A DNA stretch of 64,000 bases, from NCBI GenBank assembly GCA_977017645.1, contig OZ360229.1, positions 26,350,001 to 26,414,000 on the forward strand, written 5' to 3'. The DNA comes from Torpedo marmorata (Eukaryota). Shown here one piece after another: positions 16,603 to 53,536 of the stretch. Position 1 is the stretch's first letter. Each line of letters opens with the position of its first letter. A program made the translations under genes and the position numbers. The notes beneath the pieces were generated by a model that saw only the letters and a list, made by a program, of their open reading frames with translations, ran no database searches and was not told where the DNA came from.

Positions 16603-19600
16603 TGTTGTGGATACACGCAGTCTTGGTACGCCTAGAATACACTACAGATTGGCGACGAGGATCGAAACGAACTTCCCTAACAAGGAAAGGGAGGAGAAGA
16701 AAAGAAGAACGAAAACCTACCACAGCAGTGAGCTCCACAGGCTCACTCACAGAGAAGAAAGAAGGGAAAACGCGGGAAACGACTCAAAATGGCAGACAGC
16801 CGTTTCGGAGAGTACAAAGACTCAGAAGACTGGTATGACTACATTGAAAGATTCAATATGTACTGTATTGCCCACAATGTAGTTGATACACCAGTAAGAA
16901 AAAGGAAACAAGCTCTGTTTCTGTGAAGTGGGAAGCAAAACTTTTAAACTTATGAAGTCCCTTTTGGCACCTGAAAGACCAAGTGCTAAGACTTATGATG
17001 AACTATGCACAGTAATAGGGGAACACCTATTTCCCAGACCTGTAATTATTGCAGAACGTTATAAGTTTTATTCCAGAAAACAAATAACAGGCGAGCCAAT
17101 AAGCGAATATTTGGCTGAGTTACGCAGACTATCAGAACGTTGCGACTTCGGAGAATTCTTAAATGATGCATTAAGAGACCGATTGGTCATGGGTTTGGCT
17201 GACCGCAACACCCAATAACGATTACTAAGTAAACCTGATTTAAATATTAGGTCTGCTTATGCTACAGCGTTGAGTTTCGAAATGGCCAGCCAAAATATTG
17301 ATATTATACAGGGAGAACCCTCAACAGTAGGGTTTGTTGCAAAACCTAACCGACAACAATGCTTCCGCTGCGGGAAAAGCAACCACAGCTCTGACAACTG
17401 TTATTTTAAAAAAGCCAAATGCCATTATTGCGACAAGGAAGGACATATAAAATCGAGATGTCCAAGCAGAAAATTACTATACCAAAAAAGTTATAAACAA
17501 AAGCAAAAATATAGCAGACAAGCTTCCAAAGTAAACAAAATTAAAGAAAAAGATGAAACTCCAAGCGATGAGTCCACTAATGACTCAGAGGAGGAAAAGG
17601 CAGTGGATGTAACACAGGCGGTGGATGTAATGCATGTCCACAGTGTCGGGGACAAGAAGTTGGAAATTTATGTTGATGTTAAAATCAATGGCAAAGCTAT
17701 TCGAATGGAATTAGACACCGGAGCCTCGGTAACTCTAATGCCAAAGAACATATTATTCGAAATGTGGCCCAACCTTACCATAAAACAATCCGACATACTA
17801 TTGAGAACAGTCACAGGGGAAAAAAATCAAAGTAATTGGTAAATGCAATGTTAAGGTCGAATATAAGGGTAAGATTTCAAAAGACTTACCCATCGTCATC
17901 ATTGACGCCAAGGGAAAAGCCTTGTTCGGAAGGAACTGGTTATCACACATCCAATTGGATTGGATGGAAATCAGGTCAGTACTGAAGATTCAGACAGAAA
18001 ATGAACCAAAACTGACACAAGTGCTGAAGAAGTATCAAGCCTTATTTGGGAAAAGCCTAGGGAGAATCAAAGGAGCTGAAGCAAAATTACAATTGAAACC
18101 GGAAGCTGAACCAAAGTTCTATAAGCCAAGGACAGTGCCTTTTGCAATAAAAGACAAAATTGAGGCGGAACTCAACAGATTAGAAAGCGAGGGAATCATT
18201 GAAAAACTGCAATACAGTGACTGGGCAGCTCCGATTGTGCCAGTCCGAAAAACGAATGGAGAAATCCGAATTTGCGGAGACTATAAAGTCACAATTAATC
18301 AAGCTCTGCAAGTACCAGAACATCCCATGCCGAGAGCGGAGGAATTATTCCAATCCCTAAATGGCAGGAAAAAATTCACTAAGCTGGATTTATCTCAGGC
18401 ATATCAACAAGTTAAATTGGATGAAAAATCAAAGAAATATGTGGCAATCAATACCCATCTGGGATTATTCACATATACGAGAATGCCGTACGGAATATCA
18501 GCAGCGCCTGCAATATTTCAAGCAATCATGGACAAATTACTACACGGGATAAATGTAGGATGCGACCTGGATGATATTATTATCACAGGGCGGGACGATG
18601 CGGAGCATTTATCAAACTTAGAAAAAGTCTTAAATCGACTACAACAAGCGGATGTCCGCCTGCGAAAAGACAAATGTGTATTTATGGTACCCTCAGTAAC
18701 GTATTTGGGATTTACAATTAACAGTGAAGGAGTACAAATGAATGCGACAGGTACCAAAGCCGTCCGCAGTGCACCCTGCCCAACAAACAGGGCAGAACTA
18801 CAATCGTTTTTCGGTTTAGTCAACCATTATCGTAAACACATCCCAAACATGTCCACCCTGTGCAACCCACTGAACCAGTTACTAAGAAAAGACCAAAAAT
18901 GGTGCTGGAATACCAAAGCAAATGATGCCTTTAACCGGTTAAAGAGACTATTAACCTCAAGCAATAATGTACTCGTTCACTACGATCCTAACAAAGAGGT
19001 GACCCTAGCGGTGGATGCCTCACCAGTGGGTTTAGGAGCAGTACTGTCACAAATCACCGAAAAGGGAGAACAACCAGTGGCTTATGCATCTCGGTCCTTG
19101 ACAGCTTGTGAATGCAATTATGCACAATTGGAAAAAGAAGGACTGGCCATAATATTCGGAATCAAAAGATTTCACCAGTACTTGTATGGAAGGAGATTCA
19201 CCTTAGTAACTGACAACAAACCACTAAGTTTAATTTTAGGCCCTAAAAAAGGCATTCCGGTATTAGCGGCGACAAGAATTCAAAGATGGGCCATAATGCT
19301 CGCCGCTTACGATTATAAGTTGAAACATAAACCAGCAACACAAAACGGACATGCCAATGCTTTATCACGTTTACCCCTACCAGAAACGGATCAAACAGAA
19401 GAGATAATCCACTGGACAGCAGAGGCCACAGCTCTTAACCAAGAACAGCTTCGCCATCTGCCCATTACAGCCAAAATAATCAGCAAAGAAGTAAGGAATG
19501 AACCAACGCTGGCCAAAATCTTGTATTTTACATTAAATGGATGGCCAGAAGGGGACACTATCTCTCCAGACCTTAAACCTTACTATACCCGACGTAATGA

Positions 19601-21122
19601 AATAACGATCGAAGAAGGTTGTTTATTGTGGGGTGCCAGAACGATTATCCCAAGAAAATGGCAAAAAGACATACTTACAGAGCTTCATGACAATCATCCT
19701 GGAATGGTCCGAATGAAAGCGTTAGCATGAATGCACGTTTGGTGGCCATCAATGGACATAGATATCGAACAAACCGTACGAAAGTGTTGCACTTGTCAAG
19801 ACATGCAACCCAAAGCCCCACAAGCCGAAGCAAACCCATGGAAATAGCCTTCACGACCATGGCACAGAATTCATGTGGATTTTGCAGGTCCCTTCATGGG
19901 GGAGAATTTCTTTATTGTTATCGACGCACACTCCAAATGGCCAGTGGTATCACACATGCGTACAACGACAACAATTCAAACGATTGAAAGATTGAGAACT
20001 ATGTTTGCATCATATGGATTACCAATGGAATTGGTCTCAGACAATGGGCCTCAGTTTACATCGGATGCTTTTAGAATGTTCTTACGTAACAACGGTATAC
20101 ATCATGTGCTCTCAGCACCGTACTACCCAAGCACTAATGGAGAAGCTGAACATTTTGTGTGAACATTTAAAAATGCTATGAAAGCGGGCAAATCGCTAAA
20201 CTTTTCCTGGAATCACAGAATAGCGAATTTCCTCGCAGGATACAGAAATACGCCTCACTCAACAACTAAAAGAACACCAGCAGAATTGATGTTTGGACGC
20301 AGTTTACGAACACGGCTCTCGGCTGTGCACCCTGACATCGGGCGTCGTATTGAACACGCCACTTCGCCAACTAAACCGACCAGATCTCTGGAAGTGGGAG
20401 AAAGAGTGTTGGTACGAGATTACAGGGATAATAAAGAAACGTGGATAAGGGGCGTTATCATTAAGAAGTTAAGCCCTTGCTCGTATTCCATACAAGTAGA
20501 GACTAACATATGGAAACGACACATCGACCAACTGAGAGCAGTAGAAGATCCAATAATGACATTGCCCACAGATGAGCCCCAAGATTTGCCAGTTTGGGTC
20601 AACGACGATGAGGCTGATCTAGAGAGTCCAGAAAAGGCAAAAAGTCCCGAGAAGGCAAAGAGTCCAGCCGAGAAGGCAAAGAGTCCAGAAAAGGCAAAAA
20701 GTCCAGGGGTTCCGACGGCATCAGAAGATCACACCGACAACGAAGTCCTCCGGAACATTTGAAAGACTATGTACCATGAACAGGACACTTGACATGTTAT
20801 GATTATCAGTATCACAATGACATTTGGTAGTCGTAGTTCTTATTGTTGCATGATTTTGTAGTTGTAGTTTGTAGTTGTAGTTTCCTCAGTAGTTACAGTA
20901 GTTTTACATACTTGTTACCAGGGAATGTTTAATCATCTATATTCTGTGGGGGGAAGAGTGTTGTGGATACACGCAGTCTTGGTACGCCGCGTATGACGTC
21001 ATGACGTCTTACGCACTATATAAGGCGTAGCGCGGGAAACCATTGTTAGTTTAGTAATAAAGGATGAATGAAGCACCACGTCTCTGTGTGCTTGTGTATA
21101 TCTAAACCTAGAATACACTACA
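16603..21122 (+). mobile_element. Gypsy LTR retrotransposon, Mag-type, defective
   Basis: 5' LTR 16603-16646 (internally deleted), 3' LTR 20959-21122 (TG..CA, TATATAA, AATAAA), TSD ATCTT. PBS TGGCGACGAGGAT matches the tRNA-Ser(GCT) 3' end; PPT GGGGGGAAGAG. Gag has two CCHC knuckles, followed by protease LDTGA, RT, RNase H and integrase. Confidence 0.95.
16789..20762 (+). pseudogene. Gypsy gag-pol, disrupted
   Basis: In-frame stops near 16925, 17217, 19729 and 20161, and frameshifts near 17830 and 19850. The RT motif reads DLDD instead of YLDD. Confidence 0.9.
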
Positions 21123-23305: not shown

Positions 23306-23542
23306 GCTTTGTGCATGACAGGAGCAATGTTCTATAACTTGCTTCGGGTAACCAGAGATGCCACGTGGTCTTGTTCCCTTCTGCTTATCATATAGTCTGT
23401 CCAAGATCTTGGACCAACATCTAAGCAATCTTAATTCAAGTTCAACTTCATTATCATCCGACTGTACATATATAACTAGATGAAACAGCATTTCTCCGGA
23501 CCACAGTGCACACACAATACATGACACATAATAATTACGTAT

Positions 23543-25557
23543 TGTAGCGGCGCGCACTCGCATAATGAGGCCTTTGTTCACCCTGATGGCAGGCAAGTCC
23601 AAAGACGTCACTTGGGACACGGCGTCAAACGAAGCTTTTGAGCAGACCAAGAAGGCGCTGGCAAATGCTACCCTTTTAGCGCACACGAGGGCCGAAGCCC
23701 CCAAGGCGCTTACGGTCGACGCATCCGACACGGCCATAGGGGGAGTCCTCGAACAGCTCGTCAAGGGTCAGTGGCGACCACTCGCCTTTTTCAGCCGGCA
23801 CCTGCGACCGCCAGAGGTAAAATGCAGTGCTTTTGACAGAGAGCTTCTGGAACTCTACCTGGCCGTCCGACACTTCCTGTACTTCCTGGAGGGGAGAGAG
23901 TTCACCGCCTACATGGACCACAAGCCCCTCACCTACGCACTGGCTAAAGTCTCGGACCCATGGTCAGCCCGGCAACAGAGGCACCTGTCGTTCATCTCAG
24001 AGTTCACTTCCGACGTCCGCCACATTGCAGTGAAGAACAACGTCGTCACCGACGCACTGTCTCGCCCCACACTCCTCCCAGTGGGCATCTCGTCCTTGGG
24101 TATTGACTACACTGCACTAGCGGCGGCACAGCAGGCAGACCCTGAAATGCTGGCCTATCGCACCGCCGTCTCAGGCCTCCAGCTACAGGACATCCCTTTC
24201 GGCCCAGCAGCAGACCGGCTCCTTTGCGACGTTTCCACAGACAGGCCCAGACCAGTGGTTCCGGCAGCGTGGAGACGCCGGGTGTTCGATACTCTGCTCA
24301 ACCTGTCCCATCCATCCATCCGAGCGTCCATTAAACTCGTGGCGGACAGATTTGTCTGGCACGGATTGCGCAAGCAAGTGGGACACTGGGCCAGAACCTG
24401 CGTTCACTGCTAAGCCTCCAAGGTACAGCGACATGTTAAGGCCCCGCTCCAGCAGTTCCAGCTGCCAGACAGGAGGTTCCAATACGTCCATGTGCACATC
24501 GTCGGTCCACTGCCAGTCTCCCGGGGCTACAGGTACCTGTTACCATGGTGGACCAGTTCACCAGCTGGCCAGAGGCAGTCCCGCTCACGGAAGCCAGAGC
24601 ACTGATCGCCAACTGGATCGCTAGGTTCGGTCTACCCACGGACATCACTTCGGACAGAGGGGCGCAATTCACTTCGACTTTGTGGACGGCATTGGCACAA
24701 CTCCTGGGCACACAACTGCATCACACCACGGCGTACCACCCCCAGTCCAATGGCCTGGTAGAACGTTTCCACCGCCACCTCAAGTCGGCACTGATGGCTC
24801 GCCTGAAATGCCCCAACTGGTCAGATGAGCTTCCTTGGGTCCTGCTGGGCATTCGGACCGCCCCTAAAGAGGACTTGAGTTCTTCCTCCGCGGAGTTAGT
24901 TTATGGCGCCCCCCTGATGGTACCAGGCGAATTCATTCCAGAGGCCAGCAGTACGGAAGAGACTCCAGTTGCAGTGCTGACGAGACTGCGGGACAAGGTG
25001 GGGACCCTTGCACTGGTCCCGACCTCCAAACATGGTCCAACACCATCTTTCACCCTCAAGGACCTGCAAGACTGTGAGTATGTCTTTATTCGCAGGGGCG
25101 CACACAGGTCACCTCTACAGCGACCGTACGAGGGACCGTTCAAGGTGATCCAGAGGAATGGAACCACGTGCATTGTGGAGGTGGGTGACCAGCAAGAGAC
25201 TTTTACAATAGACCGCCTGAAACCGGCACACTTGGACATTGACCAACCGGTAAGTGTGCCCGCACCGCGACGGCGAGGCCGGCTACCCAAGCAAGGTGCA
25301 CAGGATGGGGGCACCAGGTCCCCGATGGACTTTTTCTGGGGGAGGTGGTGTAGCGGCGCGCACTCGCGGATCTCAAACCGCCATCGGGGACAATGGGGCG
25401 TCCGGAACTACGCGCTCGGGGTGGGACTTCCGGAAAGGGCTCTGACGTCACTTCCGCCCCGGGAATAGTACCTTCATTTTGAATCCAGTAAAGACTTCAT
25501 GATTGAACTTCATAGTCTCTGCGTCTTTAATTGATAGCACGCCGTAGCGCGACTACA
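23543..25557 (+). mobile_element. Gypsy LTR retrotransposon (CsRN1-like), internally deleted
   Basis: Only 19 bp of the 5' LTR remain (TGTAGCGGCGCGCACTCGC), joined directly to RNase H (VDASD..LAFFSR..AFDRELL) and integrase (SDRGAQF, YHPQSNGLVERFH, PYEGPF). PPT 25338-25348, 3' LTR 25349-25557, TSD GTAT. Confidence 0.92.
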
Positions 25558-25647: not shown

Positions 25648-28188
25648 TGTTGTGTTGAGAAGAGTATCAGGTTCGGTGGGTTCACAGAGAGATGTGTCTG
25701 AACACAAGTGTTACAATCTCACATAACTTTTATTAACACACGGGAAACAAACAGGGGAGAACATTAAACGGTACGCAATTACTAATTCACGTAAGCAACG
25801 ATACAGACATTCACCTCAGACATCAGTTAGACTCCGACAACGGTAAACCTATATTCCACCCCGCTCACACACTATAAACAGGGACTCTTACACACACTCC
25901 CGGTTCCCTGATCAATGGGTGTGCGGCTCTATGGCAAGTATTGATCTATCGCAATACTACGGCTCAGCTTCAGTGTAGTGCACACCTTACCTGTAACCCT
26001 TCCAGCGACGTCCACGGTAGCGACCTGGCATGGAGCGGTGTTCGGGGCTTAGACCACGAGACAGAGAGAGCGAATGTGCCATGCGAGGTGTGCACTAATT
26101 CGTGTCCAGAGTCCAACCTTGACTGACAGGTGATGTGACTTCCGAATAAGTTTCAGACGGGGGGGGAGGGCACGTGACCACCCGCAATACACACATTCCA
26201 GACAGTCAAGGAAGCCACGTTTCCTCCACACACAACATTCCACCCCTCGGAAGCCACATCACTCTGGAATCACAATGATGACAATCAATGACTCTATGTA
26301 CATGTTATAACTAAAAAACAAAAAGACGTGTTTAAAACAAAATGATACCAATCAAGCGGATTAATAAATACACAAGTGCCTTCCGTATGCTGGACAAGGC
26401 ACATAATCAAGTTCAATGACAGCGCCTCACCAGTCCTGGCGAACATAGCGGCGGTGGGGATGCCATTTAAGCGGGTACGATCTATGCCCGCACGTACTAG
26501 GGCACGGTACAAGTCCCTACAGACCTCGCCATTCCTGTTTTCCCCATATTTTGTCTCCACCCGGCGATCCTGTGCGGGGACCCCCTTTGCGGCTGCTCCC
26601 CGTTCTAGATACTCCAGCCCTTCCAGCAGGGCAATGGCTTCATGGACCGCCTTGCCGCTTGCTGTTCCCATCAAGGGCAAGACCACCTCTCTGAGGTCAG
26701 GGTGATTAGATGCCCCGCCAAGGCGGGGGATACCCTGACGTCCTCAGGGAGGTTGCGCCCGGGAGCCCCGCCGTAGAGGTTGGTGATAAGGGGCTCATTC
26801 CCTGATGACACTCGTGCCCTCGCTAATGGTATGCCACTGCAGTCAGCACGTCAGGTCCCACTCTAACAGCGTGGGAAACCTGGCCCGCACCGCAGCTACT
26901 ACCCGGTCCCACAGCGTGCTTCCCTCCACAATCCCTTCAGGATGCACCCGCAGGGAGTTATTGACTGAGTGCTGTGTGGACAGACTACCCAAAGAGCCAG
27001 CCTCCAGATGGGACAGGCGGACATGGGGGGCCCCCTCGTCCCACAACTGGAGTAGCCAGGCAGCCAGATGCTCGCCCGCCGCTGGCGGTATCTGTCCGCC
27101 AGCACAGCCAATTCCGTGGCGGAGTACACTCTCAATATAACCTCGCACCGGCCCCTCTCCCGTTCGCTCGGACCCTCACCGTTCTCGGCACTCTTCCCAT
27201 TTTGCTGAACCTCAAGGTGGTGCCAGAACTGTGTGGTCACCGGCCGGGCTTGCAAGGTGTCCGGAACGTAGGGGGGTGGCACGCGTAGTTCACGTGTCTC
27301 TGCAAAGTCATCATCATCCAACCACACATCCCCATCCCCCAACCATGCATCACTCTCCTCCCCGCACATAATGATCGCCCTGATCTTAACTGGGTCGCTG
27401 GGTCAACCTGCCAGCCAGATCGATGGGCTGCCTGAAGCTGCCACGCTTTGATCAGCTGGCAGGCAGCTTCAGTGTACTTTGCTTCTACGCGGCTTGTGCA
27501 TGCCCTAGCAGCGTCCAGTGCATCCCGCATGGACTCGCGCTCGATGGTTATGGATTCTATCTGCTCGATGTTCTGAGCACACTGCCTGCTTAATTCCAAC
27601 GTGATAACCCACTAGTGCCTCAGTTGGGATACTAGTAGCCACTACTCTCCCTGGTCCCAGGAAACGCCAGTTCCTCCAGAAGGGAGACCACGTGGTGCCC
27701 TATCTTCTGCCCGTGGGGGTCCAACCTGTTTAGCTAATTTATTGGCCTGGCGTGGCTTATCAGCCACGCTGCCAAACGGCTGAATCCCTGACGGTCATCG
27801 GTCCACCCGGGGATTTTATACTCTGACCCCGGGGTCCCTTCCCTATTTGTGGGTCACCTCCTGCTGCCCCCGTTGATGAGCAGGTACACAATAAATCATG
27901 CACCCGACAGGACACCTACACACACAGTTATTAACACAATCTCCCACATGGTTAAGACAATCTCCCACTCCAACATGGTTAAAACTCCACGTGTGTCCAG
28001 TCGTAACTCTTTGAACCCTGCTCGCAGCGTCAATTGTTGTGTTAGAAGGGTATCAGGTTCGGTGGGTTCACAGAGAGAAGAGTCTGGACACAAGTGTTAC
28101 AATCACACATAACGTTTATTAACACATGGGAAACAAACAGGGGAGAACGTTAAACGGTATACAATTACTAATTCACGTAAGCAATGAT
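25648..28188 (-). mobile_element. Class III (ERV-L/ERV-S-like) endogenous retrovirus, gag-only
   Basis: 3' LTR 25648-26237 (TGTTGTGT..ACACAACA, AATAAA) and PPT GAGGGGTGGAA. Partial 5' LTR 28035-28188; tRNA-Ser-like PBS at 28012-28033. The ~1.8-kb interior carries ERV-L/S gag motifs and no pol. Confidence 0.85.
26430..27980 (-). pseudogene. ERV-L/ERV-S-like gag (frameshifted)
   Basis: Coiled-coil, then WLGDGDVW, the PPPY late motif, LQARPV, YSATEL..RQ..GEHLAAWLLQLWDEG and DLYRALVRAGIDRTRLNGIPT. No CCHC knuckle. Confidence 0.82.
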
Positions 28189-29130
28189 CTATATGATAAT
28201 CTGGTCATTGGATCAGCAAATTTGCAGATGACACAAAGATTGGAGGTGTTGTGGACAGCAAGGAAGGCTTTCAAAGCTTGCAGAGGGATCTGGACCAGCT
28301 GGTAAAATGGGCTGACAATTTAATGCAGACAAGTGTGAGGTGTTGCATTTTGGAAGGACAAACCAAGAAAGGGCACACAGTAAATGGTAGGGCACTGAAG
28401 AGTGTGGTAGAACAGAGGGATCTGGGAGTGCAGATACATAATTCCCTGAAAGTGGCGTCACAGATGGATAGAGTTGTAAAGAGAGCTTTTGGCATATTGG
28501 CCTTCATAAATCAAAGTATTGAATATAGGAGTTGGGATGTTATGGTAAAATTGTAGAAGACATTGGTGAGGCCAAATTTGGAGTATTGTGTGCGGTTTTG
28601 GTCACCTAACTACAGCTAAGATATCAATAAGATTGAAAGAGTGCAGAGAAGATTTACTAGGATGTTGCCCGAACTTCAGGAAATGAGTTATAGGGAAAGG
28701 TTAAGCAGGTTAGGACTTTATTCCCTGGAGCATAGAAGCATGAGGGGAGATTTGAATGAGGTATTTAAAATTATCAGGGGGATAGACAGAATAAATGTAG
28801 GTAGGCTTTTCCCACTGAGGATAGGTGAGATGCAAACCAGAGGACATGGGTTAAGGGTGAAAGGAGAAAGGTTTAGAGGAAAAATTAGGGGGAACTTCTT
28901 CACACAGAGAGTGGTGGGAGTGTAGAATGAGCTGCCAGCTTGAAGTGGTGAATGCAGGCTCAATTTTAATTTTTAAGAAGAATTTGGACAGGTACATGGA
29001 TTGGTGGGGTTTGGAGGGCTATGGTCAGAGTGCAGGTCAGTGGGACTCGGGAGAATAATAGTTTGGCACAGACTAGAAGGGCCGAAGGGCCTGTTTCTGT
29101 GCTGTATTGTTCTATGGTTCTATAGTTCTA
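28184..29130 (+). mobile_element. CR1 LINE 3' fragment (HER1-like)
   Basis: SKFADDTKIGG and ERVQRRFTRMLP motifs, tail TTCTATGGTTCTATAGTTCTA. Confidence 0.92.
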
Positions 29131-29384
29131 AGTGAGTTGGACAGGTTTTTAACAAAAAAAGCAATAATTCTATTGCCATTGTCAATACCACATTTCCCAC
29201 TCCAGATTCATTTAATTAACTGATTTTAAACTACCCTGAACTCATGGGCATGAATGTTTATTCTACTCACCAGATTATTAGCCCAGTGAATTAACCACAG
29301 CACTGTTGTATCCCCTGAAGTGCAAGGCATTATCTTTTACTAATGGAATAGACCTCCCATTAGTGAAACATTATGCCTTACACT

Positions 29385-29610
29385 GGAATTGGAACAAAAG
29401 AAATTAGACAGGGAATTAGAACAAAAGAAATTAGACAGGGAATTGGAACAAAAGAGATTAGACTTGGAGGTAGCCAGGGAACAAAAGAAATTAGACAGGG
29501 AATTGGAACAAAAGAGATTAGACTTGGAGGCAGACAGAGAACAAAAGAGATTAGAGAACGAGGAGAAAATTAAGCAATATGAGCTGGAATAGATTAAATT
29601 GGAGAGAGAC
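29385..29610 (+). repeat. 27-bp/60-bp tandem repeat encoding an E/K/R/L coiled-coil
   Basis: ELEQKKLDR units and a 20-aa higher-order repeat, in frame, with one stop near the end. Confidence 0.8.
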
Positions 29611-47049: not shown

Positions 47050-47607
47050 TTATAGACAGGTTTCTTGTTTGACACTGATGGGATGCAGAGTTGCTGGTCC
47101 ATGATGAAATTGTATTAGATTAGAAGTCTTGGTCCTTTCATGGTGGACAGAGAATGGATGATTGTCTCCACTGTTCTTGTGACATGATGCTTTGAATTGG
47201 TCCTCTTTGTGGTCCTTGTCCAAGCAATGGACTACAAGCTGCTTGGTTACCAGCTCAATCTCTGATGCTGTGGCAGCATTGTCCAATCTTTCTGCATTCT
47301 CACTCATGTCAAATCTATTGATTTCATCATCAATCTTGAAGAGTTCCTCCTTAGACCAGTTGGTCTCTGATGCCATGCCACAGTTGCCATTCAGGTGGAT
47401 TTTCAGGCTGCATTGGTGGATGTAGCATTGGGAACAGTGGTGGCACTTGTGTTGCCGCTCTTTGCTGTGCAAGCGTCTATGGAGCTTGAGATGGACAAAC
47501 TGGGTGAATTTAGCCGAGCATTGCTTGCAGTGATATGGCCTCTCTCCAGAGTGCAAACGAAGATGGGTTTTTAGATTACTGGTACTACTGAAGCGTTTGT
47601 GGCACAC
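47050..47607 (-). CDS. PRDM1: PRDM1/Blimp-1-like last coding exon (ZF3-ZF5, acidic C-terminus)
   Basis: VCHKRFSSTSNLKTHLRLHSGE..KFTQFVHLKLH..YIHQCSLKIHLNGNC..VKQET. AG acceptor at 47608-47609 and TAA stop. Confidence 0.95.
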   Translation of the reverse strand: MCHKRFSSTSNLKTHLRLHSGERPYHCKQCSAKFTQFVHLKLHRRLHSKERQHKCHHCSQCYIHQCSLKIHLNGNCGMASETNWSKEELFKIDDEINRFDMSENAERLDNAATASEIELVTKQLVVHCLDKDHKEDQFKASCHKNSGDNHPFSVHHERTKTSNLIQFHHGPATLHPISVKQETCL

Positions 47608-48451
47608 CTGCCGGAGGAAAGATGCAAAAATGAGTCAGGAACCAACAGGAGCAAAACTCTTAAGTTGAGTTTCATTCTTGTCCCACTAGCTATGTGGGTT
47701 AAAATTGGGGCCAATTTCAATGTTTGGCACGTCCTAAACTGCTTTCTGTTTGGATGTTATCTGTAATGGCCTGCATTTCATCGTGATTCTCTTTTCCTTC
47801 CTCATAGCCACCCCCACCCATTCCCATCTCATCTCTCTGCTGAAGACACTGAACCATGAAGTTTCCAGACACTAGTCATGATCAGAAGCCTTATTCAAGC
47901 AAACCAACCTTTGAGAGTCTCCACAAGAGGTAGCAACCAATAGAGATTTGCACACAAACAGTGTGCAATGTTAAAAATGTAGCAGCACACCAGGGGAACT
48001 CCTGAGGCTTGATTCAACATTGTCAGTCGTTCAAAGATTTCTGGGACTCCGAGGATATCAGTGTGAAGCCTGGTTAAAGTCTGTCCTGCTGGGCCCTCGC
48101 CCTCAGGCTCCAATTGAGAGTGAACCGATGGCATCAGCCTTGGCCAGTTAGACCTGGTACCAGGAAAATCTCAGGATTGGAAATGTTCCCAGGTACTGTC
48201 AGCAGTAGGGCTAGCATGAGCCCAACAAGTGTGATAATTTAGGCTGTTACTAATTTTGCCAAGATCATTTTCAGGACTTTAAGGCACACTACTAAAACAG
48301 ATGAATGAATTACCATTGATGGTATACAACCATGGTGTGTGTCACAACTGCACATGGTGCCTTTTGCAATTAAGACCAGGGACCATGGTTGCAATTTTGT
48401 TTTTAATTACCACAGTCCCTTTCCAAATTTGCCTTGCATGAGCTCTCTTAC

Positions 48452-49205: not shown

Positions 49206-51001
49206 AGTGAAGTTACATCCTCCACCTCAAAGATGCAATTATACAGTCACAAAGAATGCTCCAGCAGTCATGTTGTTCCCAGTCCCCTGCTGCTTATCTT
49301 GCTCAACCGTGAAACAATTTATCACTTTTTCAGGTGCAAGTTTGCTAAAGCATGAAGAAAGTTTCTTCCGGACCTGACTGCATCAGGCATACAAAAAACA
49401 TTTACTGAATTTTATTTTTTTCCCCACTGCAGGTATTATAAGATACTTTTATTTACAGCATATTTTTAAAATTATCTTTCTGTGGAGGGTGAATACCATT
49501 GGCGGTATTTAATGTCCACCTTCTGATTATAATGTACTGATGGGCTATCTTCTGGTATGGTTTGCTGACTGTTTGGCTAGTCCAGTGGATAGTTGAGAAT
49601 CAACCTCAATAGTGTGGCACTGGAATGAGATCTAAGACCATATTGGGGAAGGGAGCTCAATGCTACAAGTAGTCTGGGCTTGAGTGCAAGTCTGAGCAAG
49701 TTAATGCAAGTATAATTCCTTCCCCAATTATACAGGCTTTTTTTTTTTTAAAAACCTAAAACCGTTTCAAGGCTACTTTTACAAATAGCAGATTTTTGAA
49801 AACTAACTTTAAATTCAAAAATAACCGCAGCAAGATTTGAAACCACATTGTCTGGCATATTTTTATTTGGGAACTTTTGATTTCATACAGCAGGATGAAC
49901 AAACCTAAAAACACCAAATTCAGCCACATAACAATGATGCCTTTGATTTCGTTGAAAGAACCACACTGGGTTGATTTTAGACTAGCTTCGCCAATAATGT
50001 TTTTGAAGCACATCAAATAACTCAGCATCAATTTCACTGTAGAACTTTAGATTGCCCTGAGATCAGTGTTACTCCAATATGAAACAAAGAAAGAGATCTT
50101 AATCCTTGTACATCTTCTTTCATCAATGAACCCTTTTTTTCCCCCATTTAATCTTATCTGGTTTGCACATTCTACCCTTCTCCATTTTTTTTCTCTGCAT
50201 CTTAACCCCAACTCTAAAACATTTAACTATAACCACTGCCAGTTATGATGATACATCATTGAGCTGAGCCATTAACTCTGCTTCTCTCTTCACATCTGCT
50301 GCTGGACCCTCTCAGTATTTCCAACATTTTGGGTTTTTTTTCCCCCCTCAGGTTTCCACCATATCTACGATTTTCTTTTTGTTTTGAGGTGCCAGAGTCC
50401 TGCACACAACAATTTCTGGGTGAATTTAAAAAAATATATACGAGTGGGCCAATCAGCCCCTCATGTCTGCTACCACTTTCTGCACTAAACCCATTTCCCT
50501 TGATTCCTTAATATCTAAAAGCCAATCAATAAATTGCTTTCTTAAATATACTCAGTGATTGAGATACCAACACTTTCTTGAGGAGAGAATTCCAAACATT
50601 TGGTATTCTCGATGAAGAATTTTCTCATTTCCACCTTAATTTGAAAGTGACCCCTGGTTTTAGATCCAGAGCCAAGGGAATCATCACCTCCCCATTTACC
50701 CTGTCAAACCCCACCAGAAGTTTGTACGTTTCAACAAGGAAGCAATCTATCTTTCTTAATTACCATTAAGAAATTGCCAAAGCTTTTGTGGGCATTTCAG
50801 TACATTTTTCAAATAATTCCTTTCTTGGAAGAGGGAAGGTGGAAACAGCAGCACTCACAGAAGGAGTTACGTGCTTATGCATATCCTACTGATGCTAACA
50901 GTGGGGAAACACAATGGAGCTCAACGTTGTCCTAGCTCGAGTGCAAGTCTGAGCAAGTTAATGCAAGCCTTGCTTGCAGAAAGACTGTAAAGAATGCTTA
51001 C

Positions 51002-52038
51002 TTTTAGGTTAGACAGTTGACCGAAAGTCTTGGAACACACGTTGCAGTCGTACTTGATCTTCCCATTCTGCTTCTTTAGTGGATAGGGGAGTGACTTAAA
51101 ACCAGGGAAATCTGCAGAAGTCTTTGGTTTGCTCAAATTCATTGCCTCTTCGCTCCCCGGAACCCATGAGGTAGCTTTCAGCTGCATTGGCAGTTCGGAG
51201 TTTATTAAGGTGCCTGAAGGAAGTGGCTGGGTGAGAGATGTTTCCTTCAGGCCAACCCCTGGAGCCATGGGCGAGAAGGCGCTGGTGGGAGCAGGGATAA
51301 GAACTCCCCGTGGCTGCTCAGGGACATGACACTTATGGCCCTCTTCTGCAGGCAGCATGACAGGCAACACATTCGGACTCATCATGGGATATGAGAGGCA
51401 GTCCCTGGCAGCAAAACCGCCACAAACTGGGGGCATCCTGCCAAACAGGCTGAGGTTGTTCAAAGTGGCTGGGCTGTTCATTGGGTGAAGGCCGCTAAAT
51501 CCAGGTGAAGAGTTGGGGAGTATAAATCTTGCATAGTGAGAAGGCAGAGCACTGTACGGATACATGTATTGATGCTGGAGGTGGCCTGGAGACGGGTACA
51601 TGGGATAGGAAACCAAGTCCTCAGCGCGGCTGTGATATCCATTCAACGGTAGGGGGAATTTATTGGGAGGTGAGGTAGTTGAGTTGGGAGACAGAATCCA
51701 AGGGGGTTGTTGAATAACTGAACTTTTGGATCTTTGGTTTGAACTGTTTCTGTCCAGTGGTCTTTCAACATCCTTATCATCATTGATCCTTGAACCGTTT
51801 CTGACCGGCACAGATCTGCTCATTACATCTGGGTGAAGTTTTTTACTGAAGTCCATTATTTGGTTATCTGGAGTGATGGGCGGGGTATCTCTTTCGATAT
51901 ACTCTACGTCCACCTTTTCTTCCTCATTCTTTGTGTTGTTAGCATTGAGTTTTTGGCTTTCGTGAATATAATCTTGGTTGTGAGGTAGCTGGCCAGTGTA
52001 TTCAGGCACCAGATCATTGTATCCCTTGAGATTTTGTC
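51002..52038 (-). CDS. PRDM1: PRDM1-like large exon (Pro/Ser-rich region to ZF1)
   Basis: Open for 1037 bp, phase 1 to 0. Contains LIPAPTSAFS, EEAMNLSK and LPYPLKKQNGKIKYDCNVCSKTFGQLSNLK; TTTCCAG acceptor and GTAAGC donor. Confidence 0.95.
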
Positions 52039-53536
52039 CTGGAAAGACAAATTGGATAGTTAATCGGGGGAAGGATAAACAGAAACAACACAGACTAATG
52101 AAGGGTGGTGGAATGATGAGTCACAATACTCAGTGCAAGATAAACAAGCAACACTGAAACATTGTGTCAAGGAGAGGAGGTATCAGAGATGTAATAATTT
52201 ACTGAAATTGTGCTCTAATTCCAAGTCACTCTGGGCTAATGGCTAACCAAAAAAATCATGGCTTTCCGAGCCTTACCATGCGATCTAGGCCAACGCTTCA
52301 CCACAGTGTACAAATTGAGCCATCATACTTCAGCTCAAATAGATCTAATAGATTTTGTGATCATCGTTGTGAGAAAATGCCAAAAGTTCACCCCCCACCC
52401 ATGACCAGACAAAACTTATCTGAACCAAAAACACCAAAAGCAGATTTATGTTAACTCATTGCTATTTTGGAGTCCTACTGTGCACAAAAAAAATGTCTGC
52501 CATGTTTCTGACAACAAAACAGTGACTTCACTTGAAAAAGAGATAAAAGATCATAAAAAGTGCTGCCACAATAGGGGTAGAGGAGCAATGGAGAAAAAAG
52601 AACTTTACATTCATGGATTGTTAGGTAAAGCAAATATGAAGAATTGAAGGTGGTTTTTAAAGTCTTTCTGGCTTCCTGAACTGTTGGACAAGTTTTTTTT
52701 TTGTATTTCCCAGTGACTGGGGGAATTGACAATACTGAGAACACACGGACACTAATAGTATGGGGAGAGAAACAAAACGGAAAGTAAATAAAAATCATGC
52801 GCGGTGAATTATTAAAGCATTTCCCCACTTTTGATGGATGACGTTTCTATTGCCTTTAGTACATGTTCGTGCTCTGGTTAGCTCGGAATGTTTAAAAGCC
52901 ACTTGAAACACATGGATGGGGCTGGTGTATTGAGTCCAGCTTCAGAGATGACTGGGAGACGTGTAGGAAGACTGGAACAGTGCCCAGCTTTTTGAGACAG
53001 GATGGGATGGATAGTTGGTGGGTTTAGGCACACAAAGGGTTACATTAACTCAGAGTTTAGCAGAACTGCTGGAGTAAAAGTGCATGTGCTAAAAGATTAA
53101 CCAAAGATGAGCCTCCTGATAGGAGGCAAGACACACTGAACTAGAGTTCCTCTTTCACTGGCCAAATCATTTCTGAAGAAACTTAAGTGGGCGGACTCTT
53201 AGTGCAAGGTGCTCACGACTGTGGGGAGATCGCAGTCATTCTGAATTTTGCTGAATCATACAATGATACTGTGGAATTATGTGCCTGAAGTCAGCAAATC
53301 TAGTGAGACAGAAAGCACCAATACTGCTTTACTTTAGAAATGAGTAAGAAACCATATTAACGGAGTTATTGACTTTTATTCCTCCTCCTCTCCACTGACA
53401 TAATGGATGCAATTTTTATTTAATATATTTTGCGTAAATTGGTTCAGAGACATGACTTTAGTAAAATGGCATCCTTACAACAGCTGCTTCAGTTCAAAGG
53501 GCTCTTGATTAGCTGTAAAATACTGTAGTGCATTTC

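Follow-up and report, generated by a model that had tools for sequence, protein, structure and literature searches.

The provirus at positions 25648–28188 of the window, by which we mean the whole 64,000-nucleotide stretch of Torpedo marmorata DNA analysed here, raises the question of whether an element that carries gag but no pol has multiplied in this genome as a gag-only family, in the manner of the mammalian MaLRs and as an earlier note on the sequence had proposed, or whether it is what remains of an ordinary provirus. The answer that we consider very likely is in two parts: the locus is a dead copy of a pol-bearing family (family A) with a single deletion, and a separate gag-only family (family B, about 1,500 junction matches) was probably co-packaged with family A and copied by it. 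The proposed MaLR-like gag-only family does exist, as a lineage with its own gag and its own junction, but the element at the locus does not belong to it.

The locus and its relatives in the genome

The anatomical elements previously claimed for the locus (a 590-nt LTR with inverted ends, a PPT, a partial second LTR and a Ser-like PBS) are all present (Table 1), as are the quoted peptide motifs, which lie scattered across three frames interrupted by stops. The claim that gag at the locus is accompanied neither by a CCHC motif nor by pro, pol or env was likewise borne out for the whole element (25648–28188), and a Pfam scan of the locus gag frames matched no Gag family. The 3' LTR is ~71 nt shorter than the family LTR (660 nt); aligned with the 5' LTR remnant over 153 sites, it shows seven transitions and four transversions, 11 differences in all. 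With the exception of one base, the PBS is the complement of the 3' ends of host tRNA-Ser genes; the tRNA-Ser 3'-end pattern occurs at six places in the host genome (control 0), three of which are called as tRNA-Ser (two TGA, one CGA), in keeping with the priming by tRNA-Ser that had been suggested.

Table 1. Features of the provirus, with positions in the window
Feature	Position	Strand	Remarks
3' LTR	25648–26237	−	590 nt; 8-nt terminal inverted repeats TGTTGTGT/ACACAACA
PPT GAGGGGTGGAA	26238–26248	−	Identical tract in families A, B, C and E
Remnant of non-coding 3' region, final ~190 nt	26249–26436	−	197 nt left of the 740-nt segment common to A, B, C and E
Deletion junction	26425–26448		Unique; L014 position 1607 fused to 5943; 4,336 nt missing
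gag, A type, class III	26437–27976	−	Broken by several frameshifts and stops; C-terminally truncated; MHR-like QX3EX4W; no CCHC
PBS, tRNA-Ser	28015–28032	−	One mismatch
5' LTR remnant, 3' 154 nt	28035–28188	−	K2P 0.076 vs 3' LTR; remainder lost at CR1-like LINE fragment

Several other features lie in the neighbourhood of the provirus. The 3' fragment of a CR1-like LINE (28189–29130, plus strand) adjoins the 5' LTR remnant and occupies the place of the missing part of that LTR. A Gypsy-like element (23535–25540, plus strand) with RNase H and integrase frames, an rve match and an LTR-like end stops ~100 nt from the 3' LTR and is unrelated to the provirus; a second Gypsy-like gag-pol (17219–20762, plus strand) has CCHC, protease and RT frames. 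A 27/33-nt tandem repeat (29384–29552, plus strand) contains an open frame with repeated ELEQKKLDR-like units. About 19 kb from the provirus lie exons of a PRDM1-like (Blimp-1/ZNF683 group) zinc-finger gene (47050–47634 and 50921–52120, minus strand), the second of which is 90% identical to its counterpart in Narcine bancroftii, 75% in skate, 68% in shark and 57% in elephant shark, in agreement with the cartilaginous-fish host that had been deduced from the letters of the sequence; by this comparison the host is likely to be an electric ray.

The locus interior, searched against the 6.2-Gb genome, gave 6,102 first-look candidates; this number, together with the LTR-PBS-gag-PPT-LTR layout and the 1.8-kb interior, might suggest that the locus element itself belongs to a MaLR-like gag-only family that has replicated. 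To this reading we assign practically no likelihood. A 24-nt pattern across the gag-to-3' junction (≤3 mismatches) was matched once genome-wide (control 0) and, when the 40 top matches among the candidates were scored, none of the other 39 spanned the junction and only the locus copy continued beyond position ~1600 in one piece. Pol sequence is kept in 17 of the 20 closest relatives fetched. Compared with the natural copy L014, the locus has lost ~4.3 kb comprising the end of gag, pro, RT, RNase H, IN and most of the 3' region, and its gag is incomplete because the deletion begins ~75 codons upstream of the family gag stop. In a gag tree of natural copies (46 rows) the locus copy is nested with the pol-bearing copies L001, L002 and L080 (98/98). 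Internal deletions of this kind are frequent, ten of them, with breakpoints that are all different, having been found in nine copies of family A, and in contigs from the sequencing runs of two organisms, which cover the family, the locus junction was bridged by none of the listed pieces.

A junction that is matched once and a gag that is nested among pol-bearing copies point to a one-off deletion, and we are nearly certain that what lies here is a class III provirus of an ordinary, deleted kind; the junction search, which the earlier note had named beforehand as the check on its proposal, went against a replicating family at this position. The locus also lacks most of the 3' segment, of which at least 600 of the 740 nt remain in 48 of 50 copies of family B, in all three type C mosaics and all 12 copies of family E (both described below) and in 23 of 26 copies of family A, counting copies that reach the 3' end in a sample partly chosen on that end. 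The loss of this segment may be the reason why the locus copy left no progeny.

Family A and its retroviral class

Family A has the layout LTR-PBS(Ser)-gag-TAG-pro-RT-RNase H-IN-non-coding (1.2 kb)-PPT-LTR, with an interior of ~6.1 kb. Its full copies have Pfam matches for RT, RNase H and integrase, the protease match being weak; the existence of a pol-bearing helper, which had been predicted for elasmobranchs, is borne out in the same genome. The gag-TAG-pro junction was matched 520 times (24-mer, ≤3 mismatches, control 0), type C mosaics included. TAG stands at the gag-pro column in nine of 15 A copies; the frame runs on through pro, which is in frame with pol, and pol continues in one frame to its own stop. 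The RT has a YIDD motif and the LTRs have TGT...ACA ends. Because the 3' region (1.2–1.4 kb) has common stops in all six frames (22 B-type and four A/D-type copies), we conclude that there is no env. After the integrase, where mammalian-type ERV-L has a dUTPase, family A leaves no space for one: the alignment of copy L028 to residues 914–1577 of a Pol from the stingray Hemitrygon, a protein without a dUTPase match, shows no gap of that size.

Exact target duplications of 5 bp flank 16 of 22 full copies (three of five in family A, 13 of 17 in family B) and none of 4 or 6 bp was seen; 5 bp is the value given for ERV3 (PMC4299795). The best solved-structure (PDB) matches of the A RT are foamy virus RTs, and its closest named proteins are from Hemitrygon (65–70% identity), followed by those of lungfish, amphibians and birds. 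In an RT tree of 50 rows, which includes no mammalian ERV-L, HERV-S, MaLR or SnRV sequences, the clade that family A and the E lineage make up with two Hemitrygon RTs (SH-aLRT 88) has as its neighbours sequences from Xenopus, lungfish, turtle, newt and galliform birds (97), with Gypsy-like RTs far off; the neighbouring clade includes a Pol of X. tropicalis with the DYRGLN motif of XtERV-S (P0030), probably of XtERV-S type.

The Gag protein of family A is 31% identical (E 3e-30) to an ‘Fv1-like’ Gag of Hemitrygon, itself a weak match to DUF5535 (E 0.0027); the relationship to Fv1 that had been claimed is sustained. A profile search with Gag returned 329 relatives, which include proteins from Narcine, killifish and pipefish annotated as ‘Fv1-like’; CCHC was present in none of the 149 relatives scanned from the best 150 of these, and Gag_p30, Retrotrans_gag and Ty3_capsid were matched by none of 46 Gag homologues, the outcome of a comparison with Gypsy and class I Gag that had been suggested beforehand. 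An Fv1 cluster in the ESM Atlas (0.90) serves as a lead only. A word-based homologue search and a PDB sequence search with the A gag frame were both empty, and a ray Gag modelled with AlphaFold gave a structure (mean pLDDT 39, pTM 0.19) too poor for a fold search.

In family A the in-frame TAG is followed by GGAGGCCAGGG, a context which we take to resemble gammaretroviral readthrough signals. With the Retrotrans_gag clusters that stand among the top ESM Atlas matches (0.91), this context would fit a derivation from Gypsy or from class I (gamma/epsilon) and not from class III. Such a derivation seems to us extremely improbable in view of the foamy virus RTs found as best structural matches, the place of the RT in its tree (among ray, frog, lungfish, turtle and bird sequences and apart from Gypsy-like RTs), the length of the target duplications, and a Gag that has no CCHC and no match to the Gypsy or gammaretroviral families; an in-frame gag stop, moreover, also occurs in the class III element XtERV-S (PMC8278194). 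The class III (ERV-L/ERV-S-like) identity first proposed for the locus is upheld by the Ser PBS, the 5-bp duplications, the zinc-finger-free Fv1-like Gag, the in-frame gag-TAG-pol arrangement and the YIDD RT, and the assignment of family A as an env-less class III ERV holds. An element of this kind would have spread inside cells, and its Pol would have been made by stop-codon readthrough.

A gag-only family and its relation to family A

Family B has the layout LTR-PBS-gag-stop-3' region-PPT-LTR, with the same 3' region as family A and an interior of ~2.9 kb (examples are L047:5312–8208, L065, L069 and L117). Most loci selected through the 3' end common to the families proved to be of this type. 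The B junction, which joins gag, at its stop, to the last integrase codons, was matched 1,485 times in the 6.2-Gb genome (24-mer, ≤3 mismatches, control 0), and the junction region was spanned by all 40 matches scored; by junction counts, B outnumbers A about 3:1. Among loci that carry the B junction, all 38 read (35 B, three C) are without pol, which was likewise found behind B gag in none of 20 further loci picked by gag alone (from 32 new matches), although these 58 loci, out of ~1,500 of B type, all come from the top matches and a rare pol-bearing element with B gag could be missed. B insertions carry distinct 5-bp target duplications. The gags of B and A are 65–70% identical, the core being ~35% divergent, and in the gag tree (46 rows) B forms one clade at 0.39 substitutions per site from A (100/100). 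We are confident that this genome contains a true gag-only family of satellites, one likely to have depended on family A. The LTR-LTR K2P divergences of the two families overlap, with medians of 0.059 for A (n=5) and 0.067 for B (n=17); a divergence of ~0.06 corresponds to roughly 14 Myr at the mammalian rate, or to 140 Myr if the rate is ten times lower, as PMC4422223 assumes, and no date is adopted here.

A spliced-RNA origin of B was considered and rejected, since B keeps the putative acceptor with the bases that precede it and its junction joins the end of gag to the last integrase codons. Nine near-equal B-junction matches lie within ~4.5 Mb of one contig (C47, 95.3–99.9 Mb); this cluster is probably due to segmental duplication, not retrotransposition, and inflates the junction counts slightly.

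In the LTR tree, which includes 18 of the 34 available B rows, A and B each need 12 changes, the mean after shuffling being 10.2, and hence do not cluster, and in the tree of the 3' segment, with 16 of 47 B rows, A and B show 12 and 11 changes, of which at least five and four, respectively, are forced by strong branches. Identity between A and B is 0.86–0.88 in the first ~300 columns, equal to that within the groups, as against 0.57–0.68 in the gag core. Mosaics are present among the fetched loci: type C, in which A gag is combined with part of B gag and with the 3' end of B, in three copies (L004, L015 and L041), and type D, with an E-like gag and the B 3' end, in one (L034). Family E (for example L125–L144 and L035) is a second defective family with its own LTR, gag and short relics of pro and RT; its copies share breakpoints (536 junction matches; 24-mer, ≤3 mismatches, control 0) and use the same 3' segment as A and B, and its gag lineage, the third, has a pol-bearing relative (L135). 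The E Gag appears by eye to be very close to the Hemitrygon protein P0005. A putative role in cis for the 3' segment is plausible; when part of the segment was examined for RNA structure, compensatory change was seen in none of 80 pairs, so that covariation lends this role no support.

From the mosaicism, the intermixed LTR and 3' trees, the homogenized leader and the overlapping ages, we infer that B was mobilized in trans by A. Our working hypothesis is that B RNA would have been copied and inserted by the RT and integrase of A, and that template switching in mixed particles would have homogenized the LTRs, leader and 3' end of B with those of A, while the gag core stayed distinct, and would also have generated the type C mosaics. 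Template switching after co-packaging has been argued for bovine ERVK C/D, MusD/ETn and recKoRV (PMC10924933). Alternatively, B may have been copied not by A but by a pol-bearing parent of its own with a B-type gag, now rare or lost, in which case common ancestry would explain the ends. Such a parent would be in line with purifying selection on the stem of B gag (see below) and with the pol-bearing relative that the third gag lineage has in this genome. We hold it to be quite improbable, however, as pol lies behind B gag in none of the 58 loci read, A/B mosaics exist, and the LTRs and 3' ends of B are scattered among several subgroups of A, a pattern that shared descent by itself would not produce at a gag dS of 0.8.

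In B Gag the MHR is altered: its W, which all 18 A motifs and 15 of 16 E motifs contain, is found in none of 30 B motifs, and its R in one of 30 matched B motifs, against 14 of 18 in A; since B Gag is without these two consensus residues, B would probably have depended on helper Gag for its capsid too. The B frame is open (0.1–0.6 stops per copy per 50 codons, against 1.2–4.4 in the other frames), the group indels of B relative to A (15, 27, 3, 12, 3 and 15 nt) are all multiples of three when one 58-column end gap is set aside, and an ATG is common to 13 of 16. For B gag against A, dN/dS is 0.30 (428 codons). Polarized synonymous and non-synonymous changes number 18 and 8 on the B stem and 29 and 13 on that of A, which is the same ratio, the distance-based values being 0.45 for B and 0.22 for A. 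For variants common within B, dN/dS is 0.76 (1.22 without CpG); within A it is 0.51 (0.39).

The open frame, the indels in multiples of three and the common ATG, together with the clean stop at the B junction and an MHR change that is family-wide, could be taken to mean that B Gag was functional during the expansion, either as a packaging aid in cis or as a dominant-negative or Fv1-like limiter of A, and that B was more than a passenger RNA. This is unlikely in our estimation: the variants common within B show no selection, and the open frame of a master copy can be merely inherited. The purifying selection on B gag may predate the loss of pol and, given this possibility, the ratios within B and the missing aromatic residue and arginine of the MHR, we think that B mostly rode on the Gag and Pol of its helper.

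At its N terminus, Gag carries a Met-initiated, TM-like extension (19-residue hydropathy 2.1–2.7; ~27976–27850, minus strand, at the locus), which was found in 13 of 14 A copies and 10 of 10 B copies whose frame is open for at least 45 residues ahead of the conserved N-terminal motif, and also in some copies of E, but in none of the seven relative Gags tested. IAP gained a membrane-targeting signal on losing env (PMC10924933) and, by analogy, the extension may be such a signal. It is tempting to go further and to suppose that rays independently evolved a MaLR-like community, in which an env-less class III helper would be attended by two or more large defective families (B and E) and by A/B mosaics, all relying on the shared 740-nt 3' cis segment, the TM-like leader of the helper Gag would serve intracellular budding, and the B Gag, with its altered MHR, would have been kept as a non-capsid factor steering packaging or limiting the helper in the fashion of Fv1. 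Taken as a whole this scenario is, we believe, distinctly unlikely.

Comparison with known systems

Both class III ERVs in cartilaginous fish and gag-only satellites (MaLR, ENS-1, Bik) were already known. Class III RT loci made up the majority of ERV matches in six chondrichthyan genomes (2,843 loci; PMC11089739), and elephant shark ERVs had been described earlier (PMC4422223). The Xenopus tropicalis element XtERV-S resembles family A in its Ser PBS, TGT...ACA ends, in-frame gag/pol stop, YIDD RT, QX3EX4-hydrophobic-X2R MHR and lack of a zinc finger, but is young and has env and a dUTPase-like region, whereas family A is old and has neither; no gag-only satellite of XtERV-S is described in the portion of that report available to us (PMC8278194).

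Among gag-encoding non-autonomous ERVs, the mammalian MaLRs form, with MERV-L/HERV-L, a pair comparable to B and A, that is, a class III non-autonomous family beside an env-less helper. They retain only small traces of retroviral homology (PMC6466679), whereas B keeps a recognizable gag of ~500 codons and LTRs nearly identical to those of its helper. The derivation of the ends of B from the ray family A argues for an origin separate from that of the mammalian MaLRs. Chicken ENS-1/ERNI with ENS-3, a sister group to ERV-L, and the zebrafish BHIKHARI elements Bik-1 and Bik-2, which carry gag without pol, are, like B, gag-encoding non-autonomous ERVs from outside the mammals. These elements are young and expressed, with developmental roles (PMC12067270), whereas B is old and degraded and has an altered MHR. 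Bovine ERVK[2-1-LTR] C/D, MusD/ETn and KoRV/recKoRV are like B in that the LTRs and flanks of the helper are kept and the centre is swapped, in recombining with their helpers and in outnumbering them, but they belong to class I/II and have a mostly non-coding centre (PMC10924933), whereas the centre of B is a divergent open gag. We found no published gag-only class III family in rays, although Repbase, Dfam, supplements and most subscription journals, which could list one, lay outside the search; the parts seen of PMC6001957, PMC11905727 and bioRxiv 2021.11.23.469661 contain nothing on the present family.

With family B, cartilaginous fish join the groups that have gag-only class III satellites, which supports a repeated, convergent origin of such elements; knowledge of the host range of retroviruses is unchanged. 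The flagged locus is itself ordinary, and it is through this locus that a large and cleanly defined helper-satellite system was exposed. In mammals so little retroviral homology is left that the origins of MaLRs are difficult to trace. In the ray satellite, by comparison, gag can still be read and the junction can be dated; there are also mosaics formed with the helper, and helper copies number in the hundreds. Sequence analysis can therefore ask when pol was lost, whether the satellite Gag was under selection and which cis segment the parasite needs.

The closest RT (65–70%) and Gag relatives are ray class III ERVs among the RefSeq models of Hemitrygon akajei and Narcine bancroftii, under the label ‘Friend virus susceptibility protein 1-like’. 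Near-intact gag-pol models occur in the Hemitrygon cluster, and the seven relative Gags tested are without the N-terminal hydrophobic extension of A and B. Three Hemitrygon akajei RefSeq entries (P0163–P0165) from a related class III family are long gag-pol models almost identical to one another, which suggests that this family was recently active in the stingray; in these models the gag stop may be bypassed by a predicted intron. A further cluster (P0381) consists of class III Gag-like proteins labelled as Klebsiella pneumoniae, which are likely to represent vertebrate contamination of the assemblies.
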